DNA of 59,263 nucleotides, counting the filler. It is 7 parts of 7 records of this genome, joined end to end, with 100 filler letters (N's around TTAATTAATTAA, not from the genome) between each part and the next. Parts side by side here need not be neighbours in the genome. Positions count along the whole stretch, not along the records: positions 44,309 to 52,603 come from SRR31156797_30663; 6 more parts are not named here. One strand, given 5' to 3'. Positions 4,710-53,633 of this stretch are shown one piece after another (position 1 is the stretch's first letter; each line of letters begins with the position of its first letter). The notes beneath the pieces are model-generated. The model did not search any database. It saw only the letters and a list, made by a program, of their open reading frames with translations, and had not been told where the DNA came from. A program made the position numbers and the translations under genes.

Positions 4710-5138
4710 ATGAAAACATTCGTTGCTAAACCAGAAACTGTAAAACGCGACTGGTATGTTGTAGACGCTGAAGGTAAAACTCTTGGCCGTCTAGCAAGTG
4801 AAATTGCATCTCGCCTACGTGGCAAACATAAAGCTGAATACACTCCACACGTAGACACTGGTGATTACATCATCGTTGTTAACGCGGAGAAAGTTGCTGT
4901 TACTGGTAACAAAGCTAAAGACAAAATGTACTACCGTCACACTGAGTTCCCAGGTGGCCTAAAATCTTTCAGCTTCGAGAAGTTGATCGAACGTAAGCCT
5001 GAAATGGTACTTGAGCTAGCGGTTAAAGGTATGCTTCCACGTGGTCCTCTTGGCCGAGCTATGTACCGTAAGCTTAAAGTTTACGCTGGCGCTGAGCACA
5101 ACCATGCTGCTCAACAACCAAAAGTACTAGACATCTAA
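4710..5138 (+). CDS. rplM: 50S ribosomal protein L13
   Basis: [33 protein letters not shown], canonical L13. Confidence 0.99.
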
Positions 5139-5153
5139 TTGGGGATTTCGGAA

Positions 5154-5546
5154 ATGGCAGAGAATCAATACTACGGCACTGGCCGTCGCAAAAGCTCAGC
5201 TGCACGCGTTTTTATTAAACCAGGCAGCGGCAACATCGTAATCAACAAGCGTAGCCTTGATGAATACTTCGGTCGTCCAACTTCTCGTATGGTTGTTAAA
5301 CAACCTCTTGAGCTAGTTGAGATGGTAGAGAAACTAGATCTATACATCACTGTTAAAGGTGGTGGTATTTCTGGTCAAGCAGGTGCTATCCGTCACGGTA
5401 TCACTCGCGCTCTTATGGAATACGATGAATCACTACGTCCTACTCTACGTGCAGCTGGCTACGTTACTCGCGACGCTCGTTGCGTTGAACGTAAGAAAGT
5501 TGGTCTACGTAAAGCACGTCGTCGTCCACAGTTCTCTAAACGTTAA
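5154..5546 (+). CDS. rpsI: 30S ribosomal protein S9
   Basis: [15 protein letters not shown]...RPQFSKR; start moved to the ATG at 5154. Confidence 0.99.
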
Positions 5547-14410: not shown

Positions 14411-14510
14411 NNNNNNNNNNNNNNNNNNNNNNNNNNNNNNNNNNNNNNNNNNNNTTAATTAATTAANNNNNNNNNNNNNNNNNNNNNNNNNNNNNNNNNN
14501 NNNNNNNNNN
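14411..14510. other. Artificial contig spacer
   Basis: N run with a central TTAATTAATTAA (stop in all six frames). Confidence 0.99.
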
Positions 14511-26800: not shown

Positions 26801-26900
26801 NNNNNNNNNNNNNNNNNNNNNNNNNNNNNNNNNNNNNNNNNNNNTTAATTAATTAANNNNNNNNNNNNNNNNNNNNNNNNNNNNNNNNNNNNNNNNNNNN
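26801..26900. other. Artificial contig spacer
   Basis: N run with a central TTAATTAATTAA. Confidence 0.99.
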
Positions 26901-32262: not shown

Positions 32263-32362
32263 NNNNNNNNNNNNNNNNNNNNNNNNNNNNNNNNNNNNNN
32301 NNNNNNTTAATTAATTAANNNNNNNNNNNNNNNNNNNNNNNNNNNNNNNNNNNNNNNNNNNN
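32263..32362. other. Artificial contig spacer
   Basis: N run with a central TTAATTAATTAA. Confidence 0.99.
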
Positions 32363-37771: not shown

Positions 37772-37871
37772 NNNNNNNNNNNNNNNNNNNNNNNNNNNNN
37801 NNNNNNNNNNNNNNNTTAATTAATTAANNNNNNNNNNNNNNNNNNNNNNNNNNNNNNNNNNNNNNNNNNNN
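37772..37871. other. Artificial contig spacer
   Basis: N run with a central TTAATTAATTAA. Confidence 0.99.
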
Positions 37872-44208: not shown

Positions 44209-44308
44209 NNNNNNNNNNNNNNNNNNNNNNNNNNNNNNNNNNNNNNNNNNNNTTAATTAATTAANNNNNNNNNNNNNNNNNNNNNNNNNNNNNNNNNNNN
44301 NNNNNNNN
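44209..44308. other. Artificial contig spacer
   Basis: N run with a central TTAATTAATTAA. Confidence 0.99.
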
Positions 44309-44309
44309 C

Positions 44310-44469: not shown

Positions 44470-45567
44470 TCATAGCGTCGATTTTTCGGTTGAGACAGGA
44501 TGAAACAGACCTGCACGGTGACAGCCCTCAAGAAAGGCTTTTTTAAGGAAACGCTTTTCAATATAGGGATCTTTTTTGCAGTGAAGTTCAAGCCTGCTCA
44601 GATAGCAGCCGGGGTCACCACCCAGATGTTTCCACTCATCGAACACTTCGGTCAACCATGCTTTCCCTGCGCCTTTAGAGCTGCATTCAACCCTGTACCG
44701 TTCATCTATGCCGTACAGGTCGTTCCATGTGTCGATTTCCTGGGCCACCGTCTCAGGTCCGTATTCAATGGCAATATGATCTGGGACAAGGTCTTCCCAA
44801 TCCATTGTATTCAAGGTGACAGACAACTCTATAGCATTGTTTTTTCCTGCAAAAGGGAAAAACACTTTTCTCGGCGTTTTCAGCGGATCTTTCGCCAGTT
44901 TATAGCTGCTGTTGCAATGAGGACAGGCAGGCACCAGGTTTAAAAAGTTGATACTGTTAAACGGGTATTTGTCCTTTGGGAAATAGTGGTCGTAGGCGTC
45001 CCGTTTGCTGTGATACCGATTGAGGATTCCTGAAAGACCGCAAAACGGACAGACATCCCTGTCGTTTTTTTGTGTGAATTTGTCATTGTGCTCATCAATG
45101 GCGCCAATACGTTCCTGAACAGATTTTAAGGTTAAAAAACTGTGTGAGTAGAGGTTTTTATAAAATCGCTTCAACGCTTTGATCAGGCCTGGAAACTGCT
45201 CTTCCGGGAAGGTGGTTTCAATACAATCATAGGTGGCTGGCCGGCATTGATCCCCGTGTTCACACAGTTGCCGGATATCGTTGTTCAGGGCAAACCAGTC
45301 TTTAAACTGCTGTTTTTGTCCAGCATCAAGCATTTTGAACGATTCAAACAACACCTGCAAGGGTTCCATAAAATTATCAGCGGATTTATTTTCCTGATAA
45401 TGAAGTTCCCGGATCATCTCTTTGAGTTCCGGCATACCCGAAAACAGGGTCTCTATATCGTAAGGTTTTCCCGGTACCGCTTTGCACCATACCTCTTCAA
45501 AAATATAACCCACATAGTGGTGCATGATCTCCATGGGGTGCGGGGTATAGCGGTAGGGAAACAGCAT
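44470..45567 (-). CDS. HNH endonuclease (PtuB-like), coupled to the upstream ATPase
   Basis: CPFCG..DHYFPKDKYP..NLVPACPHCN zinc-binding HNH motif; start overlaps the ATPase stop (TGATG). Confidence 0.88.
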   Translation of the reverse strand: MLFPYRYTPHPMEIMHHYVGYIFEEVWCKAVPGKPYDIETLFSGMPELKEMIRELHYQENKSADNFMEPLQVLFESFKMLDAGQKQQFKDWFALNNDIRQLCEHGDQCRPATYDCIETTFPEEQFPGLIKALKRFYKNLYSHSFLTLKSVQERIGAIDEHNDKFTQKNDRDVCPFCGLSGILNRYHSKRDAYDHYFPKDKYPFNSINFLNLVPACPHCNSSYKLAKDPLKTPRKVFFPFAGKNNAIELSVTLNTMDWEDLVPDHIAIEYGPETVAQEIDTWNDLYGIDERYRVECSSKGAGKAWLTEVFDEWKHLGGDPGCYLSRLELHCKKDPYIEKRFLKKAFLEGCHRAGLFHPVSTEKSTL

Positions 45568-47381
45568 CAGTCCGTCTCTTTGCCTGAGTCTTCGATCGTC
45601 TTCATCAGCAACATTTTTTCCACCGAATCACCGAGCCTGCGGTCAATCCGCCGGAGTAGATCATCTGTATCCACTCCGCCTTTTTTGAACTCCTCACGGA
45701 AACCGTTTAACAGGTGTTGTGCATAACCGCCGATGGTTTCGCGTTTATCAAAGGTTTCAATGGTGATCCGGTTAATGGAAGCCCCAAGGGTATTGTAGTC
45801 GGGATGGGAGATCGAAATACCTCCTGTCTCTCGGTTTTTATCAAAGACCAGTACCTTATGACGTTCGCTGTCGGATACCAGGAACGGTGCATGGGTCGTT
45901 ATCAGCATTTCCCGGTCTTTGTCCTTGCCTTCATGGAAACAGTCTCTGAGCCGGCTGATGAAGTTGGCCCGCCAGGCCGGGTTGAAGTGAGTTTCCGGTT
46001 CATCCAGAAGAAAGAGGCTGTTGGTATCTTTAAACAGCAGGCACAGCCCCAGGCTGTGCAATAGCTGGTGTTCACCGTCAGACAGATCCTTGAGCATCAC
46101 AGACGAGTTGATCCCGTTTTTTTCAAACCGGACAAACTTGAACCGCATGATGCGTTCATCACTGGCAAGAACCGGAACCGTTTCACTCACATAGTGGCTG
46201 TTGGACTGGTAGAGGTCGGCTTTGAGGCTTTCGCTTACCGAATAGAGGTTGAGGGTAAGCAACACCTGAAATGCATGAAACAGATCAATGGACGAATCGA
46301 AATTCTGTTTGAAGGCTTGTTTTGTATGCGCGTTGACGCAGTAATCCAGATAGAGCGTATCTGTGGATTCATCGGTAAAATAGCAGGTGGCACAGCGTTT
46401 CAGACGTGTGACCGGCGGATCAAAGCCTTTTGCAGAATCCTGATCCGCCTCCAGCAGATCCACCAGATTTAAGGTATAGGTGCCTGCGTCGCTGTCGATG
46501 AACACTGCCGGGTGATCATTGCCAAACCCCTCAGCCTGTTCGGCACTGATGTGAATGGACCGCTTGATGATAATGCGGAACTCCTGGAGATCCCCAAGCC
46601 CCATATCCGTCTGAAACGGTTTCAGGGTATCTCCATCATGGTACAGCAGGTTGCACAGCAAAATCGCCTGACTGAACGATGCATCCATATACGCCATGCG
46701 GGTTTCCGGCTTGCCGGGATAGGGGAGCTGCCCGGCCAGGCTGTGCCGGTATTCATCAAACTGAATAAAGCGCATTTTAAAAAAGGGCAGGCTCAGGATT
46801 TCATTTTCACCCGAGGAATAGCCCAGCACATACTCCGGGAGCAGATCATTTCTCTCATTGGCCCCAACCAGGCCTTTGTTTAATTCCAGACGTCCCAGGG
46901 TATCATCATCAAGGTTAAATTCACTGAAATTGGACCAGACGATTTTCGGGGATTGATCCGGCAGTTTTTGGATTTCAACCTCTGCAAACAGCGGGCTGTT
47001 CGCGTGGCGGGAATACTTTGGTACCGGGATCAGGTAATCCAGCTCAAACCCGTTGGGAAAACCATCCCCCTCCCTGAACCCTTCCGGGTTCTCTTCCTCA
47101 TCATAGATAAAGGCAGAAGGCAGGAAACTGCGGCGGACACGCAGCACTTCCAGTTGAAAAAAAATCGCAGCCAGTGCTTCCAGCAGGTTTGATTTTCCGC
47201 TGCCGTTGGGACCTGCGCAGACAAAGGGGGCAAACCCTTGACCGGGCTTGAAACCGTCCGAAAATTGAGTTTCGCCAAGCTCATCCTGCAGGGTCCACTC
47301 ACTTCGAAAGCGATACTCAAACCCCGGCTGCAAACTTCGAAAACCCCTGGGATCCGTAATTTTTAAACGTATCAGTTTCAT
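45567..47381 (-). CDS. Restriction-system-associated ABC/AAA_21-type ATPase (PtuA-like)
   Basis: Walker A GPNGSGKS, signature LSDGEHQ, Walker B LLDEPETHFNP, H-loop ITTHAP; no TM segments. Confidence 0.9.
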   Translation of the reverse strand: MKLIRLKITDPRGFRSLQPGFEYRFRSEWTLQDELGETQFSDGFKPGQGFAPFVCAGPNGSGKSNLLEALAAIFFQLEVLRVRRSFLPSAFIYDEEENPEGFREGDGFPNGFELDYLIPVPKYSRHANSPLFAEVEIQKLPDQSPKIVWSNFSEFNLDDDTLGRLELNKGLVGANERNDLLPEYVLGYSSGENEILSLPFFKMRFIQFDEYRHSLAGQLPYPGKPETRMAYMDASFSQAILLCNLLYHDGDTLKPFQTDMGLGDLQEFRIIIKRSIHISAEQAEGFGNDHPAVFIDSDAGTYTLNLVDLLEADQDSAKGFDPPVTRLKRCATCYFTDESTDTLYLDYCVNAHTKQAFKQNFDSSIDLFHAFQVLLTLNLYSVSESLKADLYQSNSHYVSETVPVLASDERIMRFKFVRFEKNGINSSVMLKDLSDGEHQLLHSLGLCLLFKDTNSLFLLDEPETHFNPAWRANFISRLRDCFHEGKDKDREMLITTHAPFLVSDSERHKVLVFDKNRETGGISISHPDYNTLGASINRITIETFDKRETIGGYAQHLLNGFREEFKKGGVDTDDLLRRIDRRLGDSVEKMLLMKTIEDSGKETD

Positions 47382-47392
47382 CCGTACCCGGC

Positions 47393-49051
47393 CTATGCGT
47401 TTTTCAGTATAATGGTATTGCCCAGCTCTTGCTTATCACCCATGTCTATGGAATTTCGGTTCTGCTCAATTCTGCCGCTGCGGATCTGATCAAAGACCCA
47501 CGCTTTGAGATGGTCATAGTCGTTGATGCCAAGCACCGGTTCTGCTCCTTCCTCGCCTTGTTCACTCAGCATCGCCTCACGGTCCAGTTCATCCAGTTTT
47601 TGCTGTGCTTCTTTCATGAATGAATCGACTGAAAAGGCGGCATCCCTACCTGACCACTGAAGGTATTCTTCCAGCCATTTCCGCAGGATCGGCTTGCGAC
47701 CTTCGGCGCTGGATAAGGCCATTCTCTGTTTCTGATCCGGTGCGGAGAACTCGAATCGCTTTTTATGTTTCGGTAAAACACTTTCAGGCTCTGTTTTGAC
47801 AGGTTCTTTATCGGCCTCGTCCGGTTCAACTGGCATCGGTACCCGCGATAGATCCAGTTCGCCTTTGAAGGCTTTTTGGCTGAGGGTTCCGTAGAGATTT
47901 TCCAGATCGGTAAGACTCTGTTGGTATTGGGTTTTGATGCCTTCGACTTTTCCGACGATGGTTGCGAATTTATTCTGGAATTCTATTGGGGGAATAATTG
48001 CCGGAAAATTCTTAAGCTGTGTTGAATTTATTGAGGCTATTCCGGTTGTTTGCTTTGCAGATTTTAAAAAATATCTTTTTCCATACTGTGAAGCAACTAA
48101 TGCGCTGAGATAATATGGATTTATTATCTTTCTATTTTTTATCCGTACACGAAATATATGGTTTTGGTGTATGCATTTTTTTACTTGATTTTCCCAAACT
48201 GATCCGCGTCCAAGCTTATCTGGGTCTCCCCCCTCTGTAAGCAATAAATCACCTTTTTCCAATTGATATCGATTAATATCTTGTTTGCTTACGGCAATAG
48301 TTTTAATTTCATCTAAATCAAAGTACCCATCCTGCACATTTGCAACTCGCATATAAGGAACCTCAATTAATTCTTTGTCTTTGTATTTTTTGCCTTTAGT
48401 AACCCCTGATATTATATCTGTTTGTATTGATAATTTCTCACTTACCCATTTGTTATAAGTACCATCAATAAATCCAAACATCTCCAAAAACACACTTTTA
48501 AGCAGTTCATCCAGTTGTTGCAGGTGGTGTTTGCGCCGGGCGATCAGGGCTCCTACTTTGCTCAGCAAATGGGCGATGCGGATTTGGTCGTTGAGGGGTG
48601 GGAGGGGGATTATCACCCTTTTTACCAAACTACTGTTAAGATTGTTAACTACACCGCCAACGGCGAATTTCTTAAACTGGGCATAGATGTTTGGCGAACC
48701 AAGCATGTAGCAAAGAAATGTTTTGTCAAAATTATTCTTTAGGTCGCGAATCAATAACCATCCGTCATGAATGCAACCTTCAATTTTAAGAATGTAAGGA
48801 CGTCCAAAACTCATCGAATTTGACAATATCAAATCTCCAGCATATACCTGCCGTGATTTATTTCTCCCCTCGGGCTTAATTTTCTCTTTGGTTTTGGTTA
48901 TATAGATTGAATCGTTATTTGCGTCTCCAATTTTAATCCAGTTTATTCCAGATTTCTCTTCCGTTATATAATTCTTAATTGGTCGAGGAGAACCTCCACG
49001 GGCAATTTCACAAACATCACCAAGTTTTACAGTTTTCCATCCTTGTTTCAC
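47393..49051 (-). CDS. hsdS: Type I R-M specificity subunit with a C-terminal extension of about 150 aa
   Basis: Two TRDs each followed by conserved helices (PLPPLNDQIRIA, PPIEFQNKF..AFKGEL); overlaps the hsdM stop. Confidence 0.95.
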   Translation of the reverse strand: MKQGWKTVKLGDVCEIARGGSPRPIKNYITEEKSGINWIKIGDANNDSIYITKTKEKIKPEGRNKSRQVYAGDLILSNSMSFGRPYILKIEGCIHDGWLLIRDLKNNFDKTFLCYMLGSPNIYAQFKKFAVGGVVNNLNSSLVKRVIIPLPPLNDQIRIAHLLSKVGALIARRKHHLQQLDELLKSVFLEMFGFIDGTYNKWVSEKLSIQTDIISGVTKGKKYKDKELIEVPYMRVANVQDGYFDLDEIKTIAVSKQDINRYQLEKGDLLLTEGGDPDKLGRGSVWENQVKKCIHQNHIFRVRIKNRKIINPYYLSALVASQYGKRYFLKSAKQTTGIASINSTQLKNFPAIIPPIEFQNKFATIVGKVEGIKTQYQQSLTDLENLYGTLSQKAFKGELDLSRVPMPVEPDEADKEPVKTEPESVLPKHKKRFEFSAPDQKQRMALSSAEGRKPILRKWLEEYLQWSGRDAAFSVDSFMKEAQQKLDELDREAMLSEQGEEGAEPVLGINDYDHLKAWVFDQIRSGRIEQNRNSIDMGDKQELGNTIILKNA

Positions 49052-50736
49052 CCTATCATCCCCCGCAACGCCAGCAACTCCTTAACAATCCCACCGTCAA
49101 CCTTCGTCAGTACATCTACATCCGCAGCCCCCACTTCTGCTTTGATCAGGCGATCCAGAATCACGGACGGCGCATCGTATTCAATCTCTTCAAACACCTC
49201 CTCTTTGTATCGGCTGAAGCTTAAGTCATAGCCTTCCTTTTGGATCTCTTCACGGGGTACGGCAAACCAGTTCTGTGTTCTGTCCCATTTGGCGGTGTTG
49301 TCACGGGCATGGAATTTTTCCACAATATCTTGAAGATCCCCGAAGCCCTCTTTTTTGGTGCGCTTGTCATCCAGGGAATAGCCGTCGTCGGTCATGTTGT
49401 AAAACCAGACCTGTTTTGTGGCGGGTTTGGTGACCTTGTCTTTTGGCCCCCAGACTTTGGTAAAAACAAGAATGGCCGTGGCAACACCGGCATAGGGTTT
49501 AAACACCCCGCTGGGCATGGCGATCACGGCTTTGAGGTCGCAGCGGTCGAGTAGGATCTGCCGGACCGTTTTAAAGGCCTTGCCGCTGCCGAAGAGCACG
49601 CCCTGGGGGATGATCACACCGGCGGTGCCGCCTTTTTTCAGGAGGTGATAGATATTTTCCAGAAACAAGAGTTCCGATTTGGTGGTGCCTGCCTGGAACC
49701 GCTCGTTGATGTCCCCCTTGTCCACACTGCCGGTAAAGGGCGGGTTGGCCATCACAATGTCGTAACAGGCTTCCTCATCAAAACTTTTGCTGAGGGTGTC
49801 CTTATAGTCGAGTTGGGGTTCATCAATGCCGTGCATCATCAGGTTCATCAGACCCAGGCGGACCATGGTGCCGTCAATATCAAAACCGAACAGGGAGGTG
49901 TCGAGAACGGCCTGGGCTTCTGCGCTCAGGGCGGCGGCAACTGAGGTTCGGACAAAACCGTCGTCGTCCGGTTGTAGCTCTTGTAACCTATCTTTTGACT
50001 CCATGTGGGTCACCACATATTGATAGGCACCCAGCAAAAAACCGGCAGTTCCGCAGGCCGGATCGCAGATTCTGTGTCCAAGCTTTGGCTGTACCAGTTC
50101 AGCCATGAGCTTGATGATATGGCGGGGTGTTCGGAACTGGCCGTTTTTACCGGCACTGGCGATTTCCGACAGCAGATGTTCGTATACATCCCCTTGGATG
50201 TCCTGAAACTTATCCTCATCTTTCTCCATGATGGTGTAAATCTCATCAATGGTTTTGACCGCTTCCACCAGAAGCGAGGGTTTGGGGATAATAAAGACGG
50301 CATTTTTCATATGGTGGGTGAATTTGGATTCGGTGCCGTTCATGTCCTTTAAAAACGGAAACACCTTGCCCTGCACATGGGAGAGCATATCCTCCGCCTG
50401 CATGTGCTTGAATTCCTTCCAGCGAAGGGTATTTCGGTCTATTGCGTATTTATCTGACACTTCAATTTTTTTCTTTTGTTCGGCCTCGGAATCGGTATCG
50501 AGTATTTTCGGGCGATATTCAGGAGGTATCCATGTGCCCTCAAACTTGGATGTGTAGGGTTCGTCTGTCCATTCGGCATCAGACTGCTTTTTGAGATCCT
50601 GCTCATCCAGCCGTTTCATGAACAGCAGATAGGTGATCTGTTCAATGGCTGTGAGGGGGTTTGATATGCCGCCTGCCCAGAATTTGTTCCAGAGCTGGCC
50701 GATCTTGCTTTTCAGTTCTGCATTGTGTTGCAGCAT
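49048..50736 (-). CDS. hsdM: Type I R-M N6-adenine methyltransferase
   Basis: GQFRTP, motif I DPACGTAGFL, motif IV NPPF, VFKPYAGV; start moved to MLQHN. Confidence 0.97.
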   Translation of the reverse strand: MLQHNAELKSKIGQLWNKFWAGGISNPLTAIEQITYLLFMKRLDEQDLKKQSDAEWTDEPYTSKFEGTWIPPEYRPKILDTDSEAEQKKKIEVSDKYAIDRNTLRWKEFKHMQAEDMLSHVQGKVFPFLKDMNGTESKFTHHMKNAVFIIPKPSLLVEAVKTIDEIYTIMEKDEDKFQDIQGDVYEHLLSEIASAGKNGQFRTPRHIIKLMAELVQPKLGHRICDPACGTAGFLLGAYQYVVTHMESKDRLQELQPDDDGFVRTSVAAALSAEAQAVLDTSLFGFDIDGTMVRLGLMNLMMHGIDEPQLDYKDTLSKSFDEEACYDIVMANPPFTGSVDKGDINERFQAGTTKSELLFLENIYHLLKKGGTAGVIIPQGVLFGSGKAFKTVRQILLDRCDLKAVIAMPSGVFKPYAGVATAILVFTKVWGPKDKVTKPATKQVWFYNMTDDGYSLDDKRTKKEGFGDLQDIVEKFHARDNTAKWDRTQNWFAVPREEIQKEGYDLSFSRYKEEVFEEIEYDAPSVILDRLIKAEVGAADVDVLTKVDGGIVKELLALRGMIG

Positions 50737-50743
50737 TGCTTTG

Positions 50744-50835
50744 TCCTTTTTCAACCACGGAAAACACGGAATTCACGGAAGGGTTAAAAAGTTATAAATT
50801 AACATTCCGTGCCATCCGTGTTTTCCGTGGTTTAT
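50744..50835. repeat. Palindromic repeat unit 1 (28-bp arms built from CACGGA subunits)
   Basis: AACCACGGAAAACACGGAATTCACGGAA (50753-50780) pairs with TTCCGTGCCATCCGTGTTTTCCGTGGTT (50805-50832), 25 of 28. Confidence 0.92.
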
Positions 50836-51215
50836 AAAATTAGCCTGTCAATCTGTACTTTCGGGTGGCTGCCGAAGTTGATCAGCAGGCCCAGCCTCAG
50901 ACCGGTCGCCTTCAAATAATTCAATACCTGTGCTTTATGCTCCGGGGCAACGGCTTTCACCGCTTTCAGTTCGACAATAATCGTTTCATAACAAATCAGG
51001 TCCGGCTTATATGTCTGCCGTAGCTGTTTGCCCTTATAATTCAATGTCAATTCCGGTTGAGATACAAAGGGAATGCCCTTTGAGGAAAGCTCGTTTTCAA
51101 GGCACTCCTGGTACACGGGTTCTAAAAAGCCTGAACCCATCTCTCTGTATACCTCGAAGACAGCACCTCTTATGGCAAAGCTCTCTTGCTCAAACAGCAA
51201 TTGACCCATTTCCAT
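50832..51215 (-). CDS. GxxExxY family protein (PD-(D/E)xK nuclease fold)
   Basis: GFLEPVY motif, PDL..IIVELKAV catalytic motif, QVLNYLK and GLLINFG. Confidence 0.95.
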   Translation of the reverse strand: MEMGQLLFEQESFAIRGAVFEVYREMGSGFLEPVYQECLENELSSKGIPFVSQPELTLNYKGKQLRQTYKPDLICYETIIVELKAVKAVAPEHKAQVLNYLKATGLRLGLLINFGSHPKVQIDRLIL

Positions 51216-51219
51216 TTTT

Positions 51220-51297
51220 TCCTTTTTTCAACCACGGAAGACACGGAAGATGTTTCAATAAAATAATTCCGTGTTTTCCGTGTCTTCCGTGGTTTAT
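51220..51297. repeat. Palindromic repeat unit 2 (perfect 19-bp arms)
   Basis: AACCACGGAAGACACGGAA (51230-51248) pairs with TTCCGTGTCTTCCGTGGTT (51276-51294), plus an extra TTCCGTG subunit. Confidence 0.92.
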
Positions 51298-51333
51298 TAT
51301 TTTAACGGCACCGGCCTCCAGTCCGTTGTTCAA

Positions 51334-52602
51334 TTATGCAACAAGCCTTTGGGTCAGCGACAGGATTTCATTGATCTCAGCCGGGCTGAATACGCCCCGG
51401 ATGCCCTGGGGATGTATCACGGTAAACGGTGCATGGATCAGATCTTTCTTTTCAATGGCTTCCCGTTCAATCATCACCTCTTTCAACAGATTTAAAAATG
51501 CCAGTTGCCGGCTGCTGAGGGTGGTGTGCTGCTGAATGAACTGTTCAAACGCCTCACTGACGGTTTCAGGAAAACTTTTCAGCACTTCAAGGCCCAAAAT
51601 ATGACGAATGAACTGGATAAAGCGTGCCTTTTTGTTCTTATATACCTGCCGCAACAATCCTTCAGTGATATGCGGATGCTCTGAATGAAGTTGCTCCGCC
51701 AGCGCTTGGGCTTCTTGTGCAGTGACCTCCTTGCCGTTTTGTAATTTCTGAAGTATTGGATGGCTGACCGTAAGTTCCATAATCAGTGCTTCCACCATGT
51801 CACGATAACGGGAAATGCTCACCGCTTCATGCTGTGGGCCGAATTCCACCATCTCCTTGTTGTGCAGTTTATCAGCAAGATTGAGGTGGACTTGGTTTGC
51901 GCCGGGGTTTTCCCGTTCACGAAATTTCATTAAAGGGCCGAGCTTGTCACACAGGGAATCCAGATCATGGTCACTGATACTGCTCCAGTAATGATTGCCC
52001 TGGGCAGATCGTATCAGGCTTTCCTCCAGTTTGACAAAGGGAACACTAAGCGGAAGTTCACGGATCTGTTCGACGATACCTGTTTTTAAGGTTTCTGCCT
52101 TTATCGTTTCTTCATTCAGCACAGCCAGTGAGTATTCCAGCAGATCGCGTTCAAAGCGCATGGCTTTAAAATCCGCATCTGAAAAGGTTTTGAACAAGGG
52201 TTTGATATGGGTTCTCAACCAGTGGAGTTTCTCATGGGTCAGGGTGTCCCAGAAAGAGGCTTTTCCAACGTCTGAGAGAAGGGCTGCAGCCTCTTTGACC
52301 ACCACGGAGGTTTGCGGCAACGCACGGATCTGCTCTTTTAGCTTTCCGGCTTCCCTAAGAACGATATCGGGTCTGTTTTGGGTTAATGCGGTTTCAATTT
52401 TATCGATTCTGAATCCAACCAGTTTTACAGGCAACGGCTCTTGGGGTGTAAGCGCTTTGCCCTTTGGGTTCAGTTTGAAGTATTCAAAATTGTCCCAGCA
52501 ATCAATGATCAGAAACAGATCCTTTTGTGTACACCAGGGTTTTAATTTTTTAGGCTCCAGCAAGCGGGTACCGCGACCGATCATCTGCCAGAACTTGGTG
52601 TA
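51334..52602 (-). CDS. hsdR: Type I R-M restriction subunit, C-terminal part (5'-truncated)
   Basis: Helicase motif VI KFWQMIGRGTRL, FLIIDCWDNF and an EcoEI-R-like C-terminus; upstream of hsdM-hsdS. Confidence 0.92.
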   Translation of the reverse strand, partial: YTKFWQMIGRGTRLLEPKKLKPWCTQKDLFLIIDCWDNFEYFKLNPKGKALTPQEPLPVKLVGFRIDKIETALTQNRPDIVLREAGKLKEQIRALPQTSVVVKEAAALLSDVGKASFWDTLTHEKLHWLRTHIKPLFKTFSDADFKAMRFERDLLEYSLAVLNEETIKAETLKTGIVEQIRELPLSVPFVKLEESLIRSAQGNHYWSSISDHDLDSLCDKLGPLMKFRERENPGANQVHLNLADKLHNKEMVEFGPQHEAVSISRYRDMVEALIMELTVSHPILQKLQNGKEVTAQEAQALAEQLHSEHPHITEGLLRQVYKNKKARFIQFIRHILGLEVLKSFPETVSEAFEQFIQQHTTLSSRQLAFLNLLKEVMIEREAIEKKDLIHAPFTVIHPQGIRGVFSPAEINEILSLTQRLVA

Positions 52603-52603
52603 G

Positions 52604-52703
52604 NNNNNNNNNNNNNNNNNNNNNNNNNNNNNNNNNNNNNNNNNNNNTTAATTAATTAANNNNNNNNNNNNNNNNNNNNNNNNNNNNNNNNNNNNNNNNN
52701 NNN
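52604..52703. other. Artificial contig spacer
   Basis: N run with a central TTAATTAATTAA. Confidence 0.99.
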
Positions 52704-53429
52704 CTTCACATCCACCTGTTCTGTAAAGCCTTCCATGCGAAAATTGCTCTGGTGAACCTTCAAAAGCAGGGCCGTGTTGTCGGTTATGGCATTCTCGTAA
52801 TCAGACAGGTGAGTTTTATTGGTGGTTCCGACTTCAACCAGAATGGCGCCGCTTTGGGACATTACATCCGGTATTCTGAACGCCCCGCCGATTTCCACAA
52901 GTTCTCCCCTGGAAACCGGAACCTCAAATCCCCGGGCCAAAGTCCCCAGGGCGATTAGAACCGCTGCCGCGTTATTATTAACGACAAGGGCGGCTTCCGC
53001 TCCGGTAATGTCGCATAACAGGCCTTCCACGTGGCTGTACCTTTCGCCCCGGCGGCCCAGGGCCAGGTCGAATTCAAGATTGCTGTATAAGCGGCCGGCC
53101 GCGTTCACGGCTTCCATGGCCTGGTCGGCCATGAGAGACCGCCCCATATTGGTATGAATCACTACTCCGGCCGCATTGATCACGCGCCTGAAATGAGGCT
53201 GGTTAAGTTCTTGAGCCTTTTTCGCAACCGCCGCGATCAGGTTCGGGTTTTCGAGTTCCGTCTCATTAAAATCTTCCGCCTGTTGAAGAATCCTATGGCG
53301 AACATTGTCGATTGTTTCACGTACGGCCTTAAGCAAAAGCGTCCGGGGAATATTCTCGCCAAGAGAAATAATTTGGGGGGCTTCCAACAATTGATCTACT
53401 TTTGGTAATCGTCGAAGGAGCGACTGCAT
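52704..53429 (-). CDS. selA: L-seryl-tRNA(Sec) selenium transferase, 3'-truncated
   Basis: LPKVDQLL, VINAAGVVIHTNMGR, VVNNNAAAV, SRGELVEIGGAFRIP and EVGTTNKT motifs. Confidence 0.97.
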
Positions 53430-53633
53430 AAAAATCCTCAACCAGGCGCGGGCTTGGTGCAATATCGTTGTATTCTTAAAATATTCAAGATATCCCAATA
53501 CCTAATACTACAGAAACCTGCGGCTTGGCAACTGATTATAAGTTAAGTGCGGCTGTTTGGGCAATTGATGCAACTGTTTGTCTGTTCCGCCCGGGCAAAA
53601 GCCGGGAAGCGGATCGGCTTTAGCCGCCGCAAT

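Follow-up and report, generated by a model that had tools for sequence, protein, structure and literature searches.

The gene described here encodes a GxxExxY protein and is located in the window, i.e., the whole stretch of DNA that was analysed (59,263 nt), which is composed of seven contigs; all positions are those of the window. The locus lies in the contig at 44309–52603 (8.3 kb; SRR31156797_30663), every gene of which is on the minus strand, and the order in the direction of transcription is: 3' part of hsdR, hairpin 2 (unit 2), GxxExxY gene, hairpin 1 (unit 1), hsdM, hsdS, TIGR04435 AAA ATPase gene and a 365-aa open reading frame (ORF). The GxxExxY gene (50832–51215, minus strand; PF13366/PDDEXK_3, TIGR04256) is intact (384 bp, 127 aa). 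It is preceded by hairpin 2 (51230–51294; arms 51230–51248 and 51267–51294) and an A-rich spacer with an AAGGA ribosome-binding site (RBS; 51216–51229, read from the sequence), and is followed by hairpin 1 (50753–50832; arms 50753–50780 and 50805–50832) and a spacer with the RBS of hsdM, AAGGA (50737–50752). The same spacer is present in genome G090, where the hsd operon carries the cassette in the same place (94% DNA identity to the window).

The arms of both hairpins consist of tandem CACGGAA units with a 9-nt period and 2-nt spacers; hairpin 2 contains three units in one arm and two in the other (19-nt arms, 100% complementary), hairpin 1 three units per arm (34-nt arms, 85% complementary). 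The two hairpins are direct repeats of one another (32 nt at 88% and 39 nt at 82%), and the original prediction of a gene placed between two related palindromes in direct orientation, built from CACGGA subunits, was borne out in this respect. The 32-nt repeat extends 13 nt past the palindrome, so that the RBS spacers before the GxxExxY gene and hsdM are near-copies. The arms of hairpin 1 are also complementary to those of hairpin 2 across the gene (25–28 nt, 88–89%). As had been noticed before, the stop codon TAA of the GxxExxY gene touches the arm of hairpin 1 (base 50832 is common to both), and on the coding strand each hairpin ends with ...CCGTGGTTGAAAAA(A)GGA, an ATG being found 5–8 nt beyond. 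Search for CACGGAANNCACGGAA (1 mismatch allowed) gave 7 matches in the window, all within the two hairpins (expected, 0.03); two further AACCACGGAA matches (6778 and 15450) have no hairpin and were set aside.

RNA folding gave −45.6 kcal/mol (z −8.0) for hairpin 1 and −33.9 kcal/mol (z −8.2) for hairpin 2; local hairpin stems are of 19 bp and 18 + 7 bp. In an Rfam search of 50600–51450 nothing reached the gathering level, neither rRNA nor any other family; the sole matches were sub-threshold, to microRNA-like hairpins. In the terminator scan just the inner sub-stem of hairpin 2 was flagged, on the plus strand and at background frequency; the hairpins, behind which the coding strand has runs of A, are therefore not intrinsic terminators on this strand. 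Contigs of two sequencing runs (X2 and X3) diverge at 50835, which is the hairpin edge; these may be mere assembly breaks at repeats. In run X1, probably that of the window's sample, record 6 is a 5-kb contig of higher depth with a CACGGAA arm (cf. 51260–51295) in a different context.

Remaining genes of the contig, all on the minus strand: the 3' part of hsdR (51334–52603; ORF 51334–52584, 416 aa; Pfam EcoEI_R_C, E 5.6e-31) is cut by the contig end at 52603, the linker run of N starting at 52604, and its homologue in G090 (96% identical) lies within a 940-aa open frame; hsdM (49048–50736; N6_Mtase, E 1.9e-60; HsdM_N, E 1.4e-17); hsdS (47393–49051; Methylase_S, E 1.2e-28); restriction-system-associated AAA ATPase (45567–47381; TIGR04435, E 3.9e-237). 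For hsdM, the start TTG 50754 was set aside, ATG 50736 being most likely by comparison with homologues. The adjacent hsdR, hsdM and hsdS on one strand form a type I restriction-modification arrangement (Pfam); after hsdS, the region 44470–47381 holds the TIGR04435 ATPase and then the 365-aa ORF, for which neither Pfam nor NCBIfam gave a match. No integrase or recombinase gene was found among the six ORFs of the contig (Pfam and NCBIfam matches). The seven contigs are joined by linkers N44-TTAATTAATTAA-N44 (14411–14510, 26801–26900, 32263–32362, 37772–37871, 44209–44308 and 52604–52703); genes on either side of a linker are not truly adjacent (e.g., truncated selA, 52704–53498, beside hsdR).

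The GxxExxY protein matched PF13366 with 145.6 bits (cut-off 22; E 1e-42; profile positions 2–116 of 117) and TIGR04256 with 145.9 bits (cut-off 35; E 6e-43). The motifs G29-F-L-E32-P-V-Y35, the PD-(D/E)xK site (D72, E82-x-K84) and QxxxY (Q96, Y100), the latter being typical of RecB-family nucleases, are intact; in the 34 sequences compared, G27, G29, E32, D72, K84, Q96, Y100 and N113 are invariant and E82 is nearly invariant. An AlphaFold2 model (mean predicted local distance difference test score 95.2) has a restriction-endonuclease-like α/β fold, the nearest structures by Foldseek being Cas4 SSO0001 (E 7e-5, TMq ~0.6) and the exonucleases of the lambda and RecE type, followed by weaker matches to Hjc resolvases; sequence search of the PDB with the window protein gave no match. 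Profiles, residues and model agree with the earlier assignment to the PD-(D/E)xK fold, and the protein is predicted to be a minimal RecB/Cas4-like nuclease. As the nearest relatives by fold act on DNA, a DNA substrate is favoured, not proved. Compared with G090, dN/dS is 0.24 (7 synonymous and 6 non-synonymous changes; hsdR, 0.14), which points to purifying selection on the gene between the two; the start conserved in G090 is the second ATG, 51209. PF13366/TIGR04256 is a large and widely scattered family, entered in the superfamily table of PMC3424549, the part of that paper available here, with function unknown and multiple transfers; in the portion of PMC8934634 at hand PF13366 appears once, as a domain label. 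Many GxxExxY remnants and pseudogenes were met in the sample of genomes of one class (see below). Plasmids and phages are not the usual vehicles: a relative is carried by 8 of 72,556 plasmid records and by one virus.

Inverted arms of the same kind were found around GxxExxY genes in general. In five genomes (G001–G005) reached via hairpin loci, 11 of 12 PF13366 places have inverted arms, each of about three tandem units, at either end of the gene; the twelfth (L133) has arms upstream only. The unit type differs between copies (CACGGAA, CACAGAG, CACAGAT, CGCAGAT, CGCAAAG, TCAGGAT and CGCGAAG), and the general arm may be written as about three tandem units of 7–10 nt, C-R-C-R-R-A-N plus a spacer of 2–3 nt. 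For counting, each locus was given the score of the best inverted match between its 200-nt flanks, the threshold being set at the 99th percentile of scores from control placements within these loci. In an unbiased sample of one class (match in 34 of 61 genomes; 26 of 30 returned loci analysed, two duplicates and two partial loci being left out) 21 of 26 loci were above the threshold of 24 (443 controls); in an unbiased sample of a second phylum, 21 of 28 exceeded 27.8 (207 controls). In a record of Bacteroides finegoldii, radA is followed by an arm of CACAGAG type, the GxxExxY gene, a second such arm and the gene of an FAD protein; a Methanosarcina copy has CACGGAT/CACAGAT arms, and its protein resembles a Desulfobacter copy with CACGGAT units.

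The commonest architecture is arm–gene–arm (about 18 loci). As read on the coding strand, 18 of 18 of these simple cassettes have the purine-rich arm upstream of the gene, with the ATG immediately behind its last unit (e.g., ...CACGGAAAATG); between the stop codon and the downstream arm there are 7–25 nt. About one third of the cassettes are flanked by a complete hairpin, at one end or at both (the window, L077, L130, L159, L160, L158, L132, L125, L134, L162), and the two-hairpin form of the window is a minority architecture. The RBS of the GxxExxY gene is in most cassettes part of the innermost unit of the arm; duplication of an RBS-bearing flank along with the hairpin was seen only in the window and G090.

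Cassettes sit co-oriented in intercistronic spacers of operons: 54 of 58 Pfam-supported flanking genes, drawn from 66 of 100 candidate ORFs, have the orientation of the cassette. Host junctions include gatA|mutL-operon, gatB|FG-GAP, gltB|gltD, exbD|tonB, rmlB|rmlA, tgt, argS, coaBC|UDG and radA|FAD protein; at least 6 of 36 cassettes are in restriction-modification or BREX-type loci (hsdS|hsdM, hsdR|hsdM, BrxC|PglX, Eco57I-type methylase, hsdS|HNH, DUF499 neighbour). The genes gatA, gatB, mutL and amiC recur as neighbours of hairpins or cassettes across unrelated phyla (L010, L020, L034, L039, L127, L136–L138, L156), perhaps by site preference, perhaps by chance.

The original prediction offered as an alternative that the hairpins are mRNA processing sites setting the HsdR:HsdM ratio; in the form weighed here they would be operon-specific regulatory sites, with the nuclease as an accessory subunit of the type I system. 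The retention of the cassette in the same place in G090 and the recurrence of GxxExxY genes in hsd operons (L150, L163, L133, L126) agree with this; against it, the same cassette type is found between gatA/mutL-operon genes, gltB/gltD, exbD/tonB, rmlB/rmlA and radA/FAD protein, hairpins occur genome-wide beside housekeeping genes, and related hsd operons are devoid of the cassette. Among 301 genomes the window-type hsdR|hsdM junction gave 12 hits: G090 is filled; in L170 and L171 (73% and 60% HsdR identity) hsdR leads straight into hsdM, these being the empty junctions that were to be sought by alignment; in L168 and L169 a lone arm remnant of CACGAAA type was found. No hsdR–hairpin–hsdM allele, with the gene and one hairpin lost, was seen among them. 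Because the element is generic, specific tuning of HsdR:HsdM is very improbable.

Filled, deleted and empty states of one site were observed at gatA|orfX(|mutL) of Desulfobacter and relatives: the full gene is present in G003, G041 and G203, internal deletions retaining both arms in G005 and G126, and the left arm alone in G206; no element was found in more distant genomes (e.g., L204–L211), and a hairpin of another unit type is located in L212. Spacers of gatA|orfX|mutL in L205, L212, L213 and L222 contain other short repeats, e.g., GGGACTTGG-type units and 15-nt tandem repeats. In G206, three gene-less CACGGAA hairpins at different loci (L295–L297) have intact arms, between which the gene is still represented by its first codons and its last ~50 nt; the site of L297 has no downstream match in relatives. 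At a thiG-like junction a short element was found in G206, G203, G005 and G003; it is absent in G041 (9 nt between the flanks), and in G126 a different 110-nt sequence is present. The right boundary of this element is exactly after ...GGTT, and the empty site in G041 already has the RBS of the downstream gene. This last point, together with the location of the RBS inside the innermost arm unit in most cassettes, disagrees with the earlier proposal that the repeat supplies the RBS of the next gene. In G005, a lone CACGGAA arm (L283 ~5100–5190, contig C198) is placed where five relatives (L290–L294) carry 1.2–7.3 kb of other genes; it may mark the end-point of a deletion or rearrangement, and no clean insertion boundary is readable there. 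These series show that cassettes are inherited vertically after insertion and then decay by internal deletion to gene-less hairpins.

Gene-less hairpins are widely dispersed. The CACGGAA arm (version with 17 specified bases as the query, contigs of one genome per species) was found at no fewer than 124 loci, in Planctomycetota, Verrucomicrobiota, Acidobacteriota, Desulfobacterota, Gamma- and Alphaproteobacteria, Chloroflexota, Bacteroidia and Methanosarcina. By our own estimate, tens of matches would be expected by chance in a collection of that size. Among the matches listed, a third CACGGA unit, absent from the query, is present in 100 of 153 pattern occurrences, and at 31 of 124 loci (44 with 300-nt flanks only) a strict inverted partner is no more than 420 nt away; the arm matches are real despite the chance expectation. 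Most of the hairpins stand between ordinary genes, e.g., folP, der/bamB, lolD/lolE-like genes, amiC/mutL, gatA/gatB and lutB/lutC (Pfam, first 150 of 250 flanking ORFs). A GxxExxY gene adjoins 7 of 124 CACGGAA loci among the matches listed.

Hits counted on both strands of genomes G001, G002, G003, G004 and G005, respectively (reversed-pattern controls, 0–2): CACGGAA – 5, 129, 19, 67 and 53; CACAGAG – 0, 3, 62, 0 and 0; CACAGAT – 0, 0, 0, 79 and 5; CGCAGAT – 1, 0, 0, 2 and 15; CGCAAAG – 0, 1, 0, 36 and 0. Each of the four non-CACGGAA types tested is abundant in one genome only, the one in which a GxxExxY gene is flanked by arms of this type. Two CACAGAT elements of G004 (L190 and L191; contig C3, ~15 kb apart) have different flanks and opposite orientation, and their interiors are 80% identical over 142 nt; a gene-less element has therefore moved or been copied at least once. 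Hairpins also cluster by type within tens of kb of the cognate gene (G003, C1, 5.14–5.19 Mb; G005, C215 and C28), for which local spread or a permissive genomic island could be the reason.

The abundance of gene-less copies brings up the explanation that the hairpins are independent host repeats, similar to repetitive extragenic palindromes (REPs), that serve as attC- or att-like landing pads for GxxExxY genes, the window hairpins being integration junctions. It is in line with the small share of CACGGAA loci adjoining a gene, with the complete hairpins around about a third of the cassettes, with elements nested inside arms of other elements and with the duplication of the window hairpin together with its flank. 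The deletion series at fixed sites, on the other hand, derive hairpins from cassettes; the polarity of the gene relative to the arms is fixed in all simple cassettes, the unit type differs from one protein clade to the next, and neither integrase nor recombinase gene was seen in the 8.3-kb contig. We regard this explanation as quite unlikely, and the resemblance to attC cassettes of integrons suggested earlier was not upheld, there being no integrase and the arms being different in kind. Most CACGGAA hairpins lie away from GxxExxY genes, which, taken literally, goes against the prediction on a ground for rejection that it had itself named (the repeat equally common where these genes are absent); the low adjacency fits decay of cassettes, not independence from them.

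The unit type was compared with the relationship of the proteins. In the tree of 34 proteins, 17 changes account for 17 unit-type groups (minimum 16; shuffled mean, 23.4; 0 of 200 shuffles as low), a clustering which relatedness alone also yields. Proteins flanked by CACGGAA arms from Desulfobacteria, Planctomycetota, Verrucomicrobiota and Brocadiaceae form one clade (SH-aLRT 96), and same-genome paralogues with other unit types are placed elsewhere in the tree. The 7-nt cores are constant at 48–56% protein identity and the spacers vary, which argues for constraint beyond relatedness. G090 has exactly one 9-nt unit fewer than the window (in hairpin 2) along with spacer substitutions. These comparisons show that gene and arm type travel together across phyla and into archaea, and that the unit number changes by slippage.

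On the whole, the window gene and its two hairpins are probably one copy of a selfish cassette that inserts between cistrons and is similar to the intervening sequences (IVSs) of rRNA. In the transcript, the arms would form stems of 19–28 bp, in the window either within each hairpin or, over a longer range, as a pair of stems round the gene; RNase III may cut these stems, as in rRNA IVSs, and we propose that insertion would therefore leave the host operon unbroken. Each downstream cistron of the window would still have an RBS of its own, located immediately 3' of a hairpin. Processing of the stems in the transcript, by which the host cistrons would stay expressed, is, by analogy, about as likely as not. 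The nuclease may also recognise units of its own type and act on DNA, homing or cleaving hairpins or cruciforms, and in this way help the element to spread or to be retained; this is put forward tentatively, a little short of even. Since the window hairpins are direct repeats, loss of the gene with one hairpin by recombination would be possible. The broadest form of the proposal, in which GxxExxY proteins are mobility or maintenance enzymes of pan-prokaryotic IVS-type cassettes, each clade reading its own 7-nt unit, three per arm, and cutting or homing there, is doubtful as a whole. The view of a non-disruptive unit, formerly or currently mobile and resembling REPs with their associated tyrosine transposases (RAYTs), is supported by the empty junctions, the many unrelated co-directional gene pairs, the family-wide arms and the deletion derivatives.

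Several observations weigh against the IVS-like cassette with an active nuclease. No excision joint at the locus was found in contigs of four sequencing runs, and no target-site duplication at the single clean filled/empty pair (thiG-like junction, G206 vs. G041). The genome-wide counts are from G001–G005, not from the window's own genome. G004 has 67 CACGGAA hits, and no CACGGAA-flanked gene was found there; in G002, CGCGAAT arms (L179, L181, L186, L188) are nested in CACGGAA arms and CGCAGAG arms are also present in L188, the sole GxxExxY gene of this genome being of CACGGAA type, so that these arms are without a cognate gene. The interiors of 20 gene-less elements of G002 and G004 have no similarity to the resident gene (blastn-short and profile search) and are mostly unique; not all gene-less elements are therefore recent deletion products. 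Complementarity of spacers between arms is 0.58 vs. 0.38 in shuffled pairs, a sample (n = 15) too small to separate RNA pairing from DNA binding, and the co-variation of protein and unit could come from co-inheritance and slippage-driven homogenisation without contact between protein and arm. Genes of another family, PF05635, have such arms without a nuclease; hence a self-encoded nuclease is not needed for the arm architecture. These PF05635 cassettes, the orphan arms and the missing target duplication together count against a simple self-encoded transposase.

The PF05635 genes were examined outside rRNA in G001–G005: 11 of 14 have tandem-unit inverted arms above the threshold of 27.8, which was borrowed from the GxxExxY sample (no controls of their own). 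The arms (L259–L275; G001, G002, G004, G005) consist of tandem units of 6–8 nt, e.g., GTTGAGT, GACAGGA and CTCGTG, which suggests, as judged from the arms, one element class with several cargo types. They also speak for an explanation in which the arms are insulating RNA elements (processing, stability or control of translation) and GxxExxY is passive cargo, moved by host recombination or by machinery encoded elsewhere, with an unrelated role of the nuclease in the cell or in defence. The strong stems of the window, the RBS and ATG of the cassettes inside or beside the stem, the orphan arm families without a cognate gene, and the share of cassettes in restriction-modification or BREX-type loci are all in accord with it, as is the excision of rRNA IVSs by host RNase III with an ORF that appears dispensable, according to the available text of PMC4990558. 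Base pairing alone, however, would permit compensatory drift, whereas the 7-nt cores are identical over ~50% protein divergence next to variable spacers; gene-less hairpins of all four non-CACGGAA types are abundant almost only where the genome has a gene of the same type, and the catalytic residues of the nuclease are invariant across phyla. Passive cargo is accordingly held to be unlikely, and the IVS-like selfish cassette is retained as the probable reading.

In literature searches, GxxExxY genes as arm-bounded cassettes, clade-matched units and the link to IVSs were found undescribed (subscription journals and family notes of databases were outside the scope). PF13366/TIGR04256 gains a defined genomic anatomy and a testable role, and three subjects are joined: operon cassettes, rRNA IVSs and intergenic hairpin families, the last with tens to more than 100 copies in Planctomycetota, Desulfobacteria, Gammaproteobacteria and other groups. 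Should the nuclease read its own units, the pairs of clade and unit would be a natural specificity series and the system a new PD-(D/E)xK mobile element with a simple, evolvable protein–DNA recognition code; the origin of rRNA IVSs and of many orphan intergenic hairpin families would also be accounted for. In practice, such hairpins break assemblies, and they explain small 'hypothetical' ORFs and orphan stems in operons.

Comparison with known systems: REP/REPIN sequences with RAYTs are the best analogy for a gene with dispersed repeats, and miniature inverted-repeat transposable elements (MITEs) for the deletion derivatives. RAYTs are relatives of HUH Y1 transposases. In both REP/RAYT and GxxExxY systems one or a few gene copies per genome are flanked by the short palindrome of which tens to more than 100 copies are dispersed intergenically, and the repeat type matches the gene lineage; the window itself holds just two hairpins, the other genomes having 5–129 hits vs. 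0–2 in controls. Unlike a RAYT, the window gene is not an IS200/IS605-like HUH transposase, its sole Pfam match being PDDEXK_3 with a Cas4/lambda-exonuclease-like fold; the cassette arms are arrays of tandem units, many of the gene-less copies have arisen by decay of cassettes and are not replicated doublets, and a unit type of GxxExxY cassettes is common to several phyla. With MITEs and transposons bounded by terminal inverted repeats the cassettes share such repeats, internally deleted copies (L295–L297) and the occurrence of one element at two loci, but they have no DDE transposase and no target-site duplication (one site), and their interiors are mostly unique. Free-standing homing endonuclease genes are similar in being small nuclease genes between conserved genes, sporadic and often pseudogenised after fixation; they are not known to carry tandem-unit inverted arms, and the many different host sites of GxxExxY cassettes argue against a single fixed target sequence. 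Integron cassettes resemble them as promoterless single genes with an imperfect palindrome, co-oriented with host transcription; they differ in that no integrase or attI is near the GxxExxY cassette, the palindromes are on both sides and made of tandem units, and the cassettes are scattered singly, not arrayed.

The IVSs of rRNA (Coxiella, Leptospira) are alike in the ORF between stem-forming arms, tandem units before the start, variable unit number and an ORF prone to decay. According to the text of PMC4990558 available to us, the IVS of Coxiella 23S rRNA contains a small ORF in the loop of a ~28-bp stem formed by terminal inverted repeats; three tandem GACAGAT heptamers, their number varying among strains, precede the start codon of S23p; the ORF is decaying and appears dispensable, and RNase III cuts inside the stem. 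The same source (2016) considers the origin and mobility unclear, the ideas of a transposon remnant and of the ORF as mobility factor both being left unresolved by its authors. The window agrees with this in the stem-capable inverted repeats round an ORF and in a unit number that differs between close relatives. The differences are as follows: the IVS ORF is a PF05635 four-helix bundle, the window ORF a PF13366 PD-(D/E)xK nuclease; IVSs are located in helix 25 or 45 of 23S rRNA, the window cassette in the intercistronic mRNA spacer hsdR|hsdM; the units are of 7 nt vs. 9–10 nt in cassettes of the window type; and excision by RNase III is known for IVSs, where removal of the element from the transcript makes the insertion tolerable, and is proposed for the window cassette by analogy only. 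Dispersed gene-less copies and clade-matched unit types, which go unmentioned for IVSs in the available text of PMC4990558, belong to the GxxExxY cassettes.

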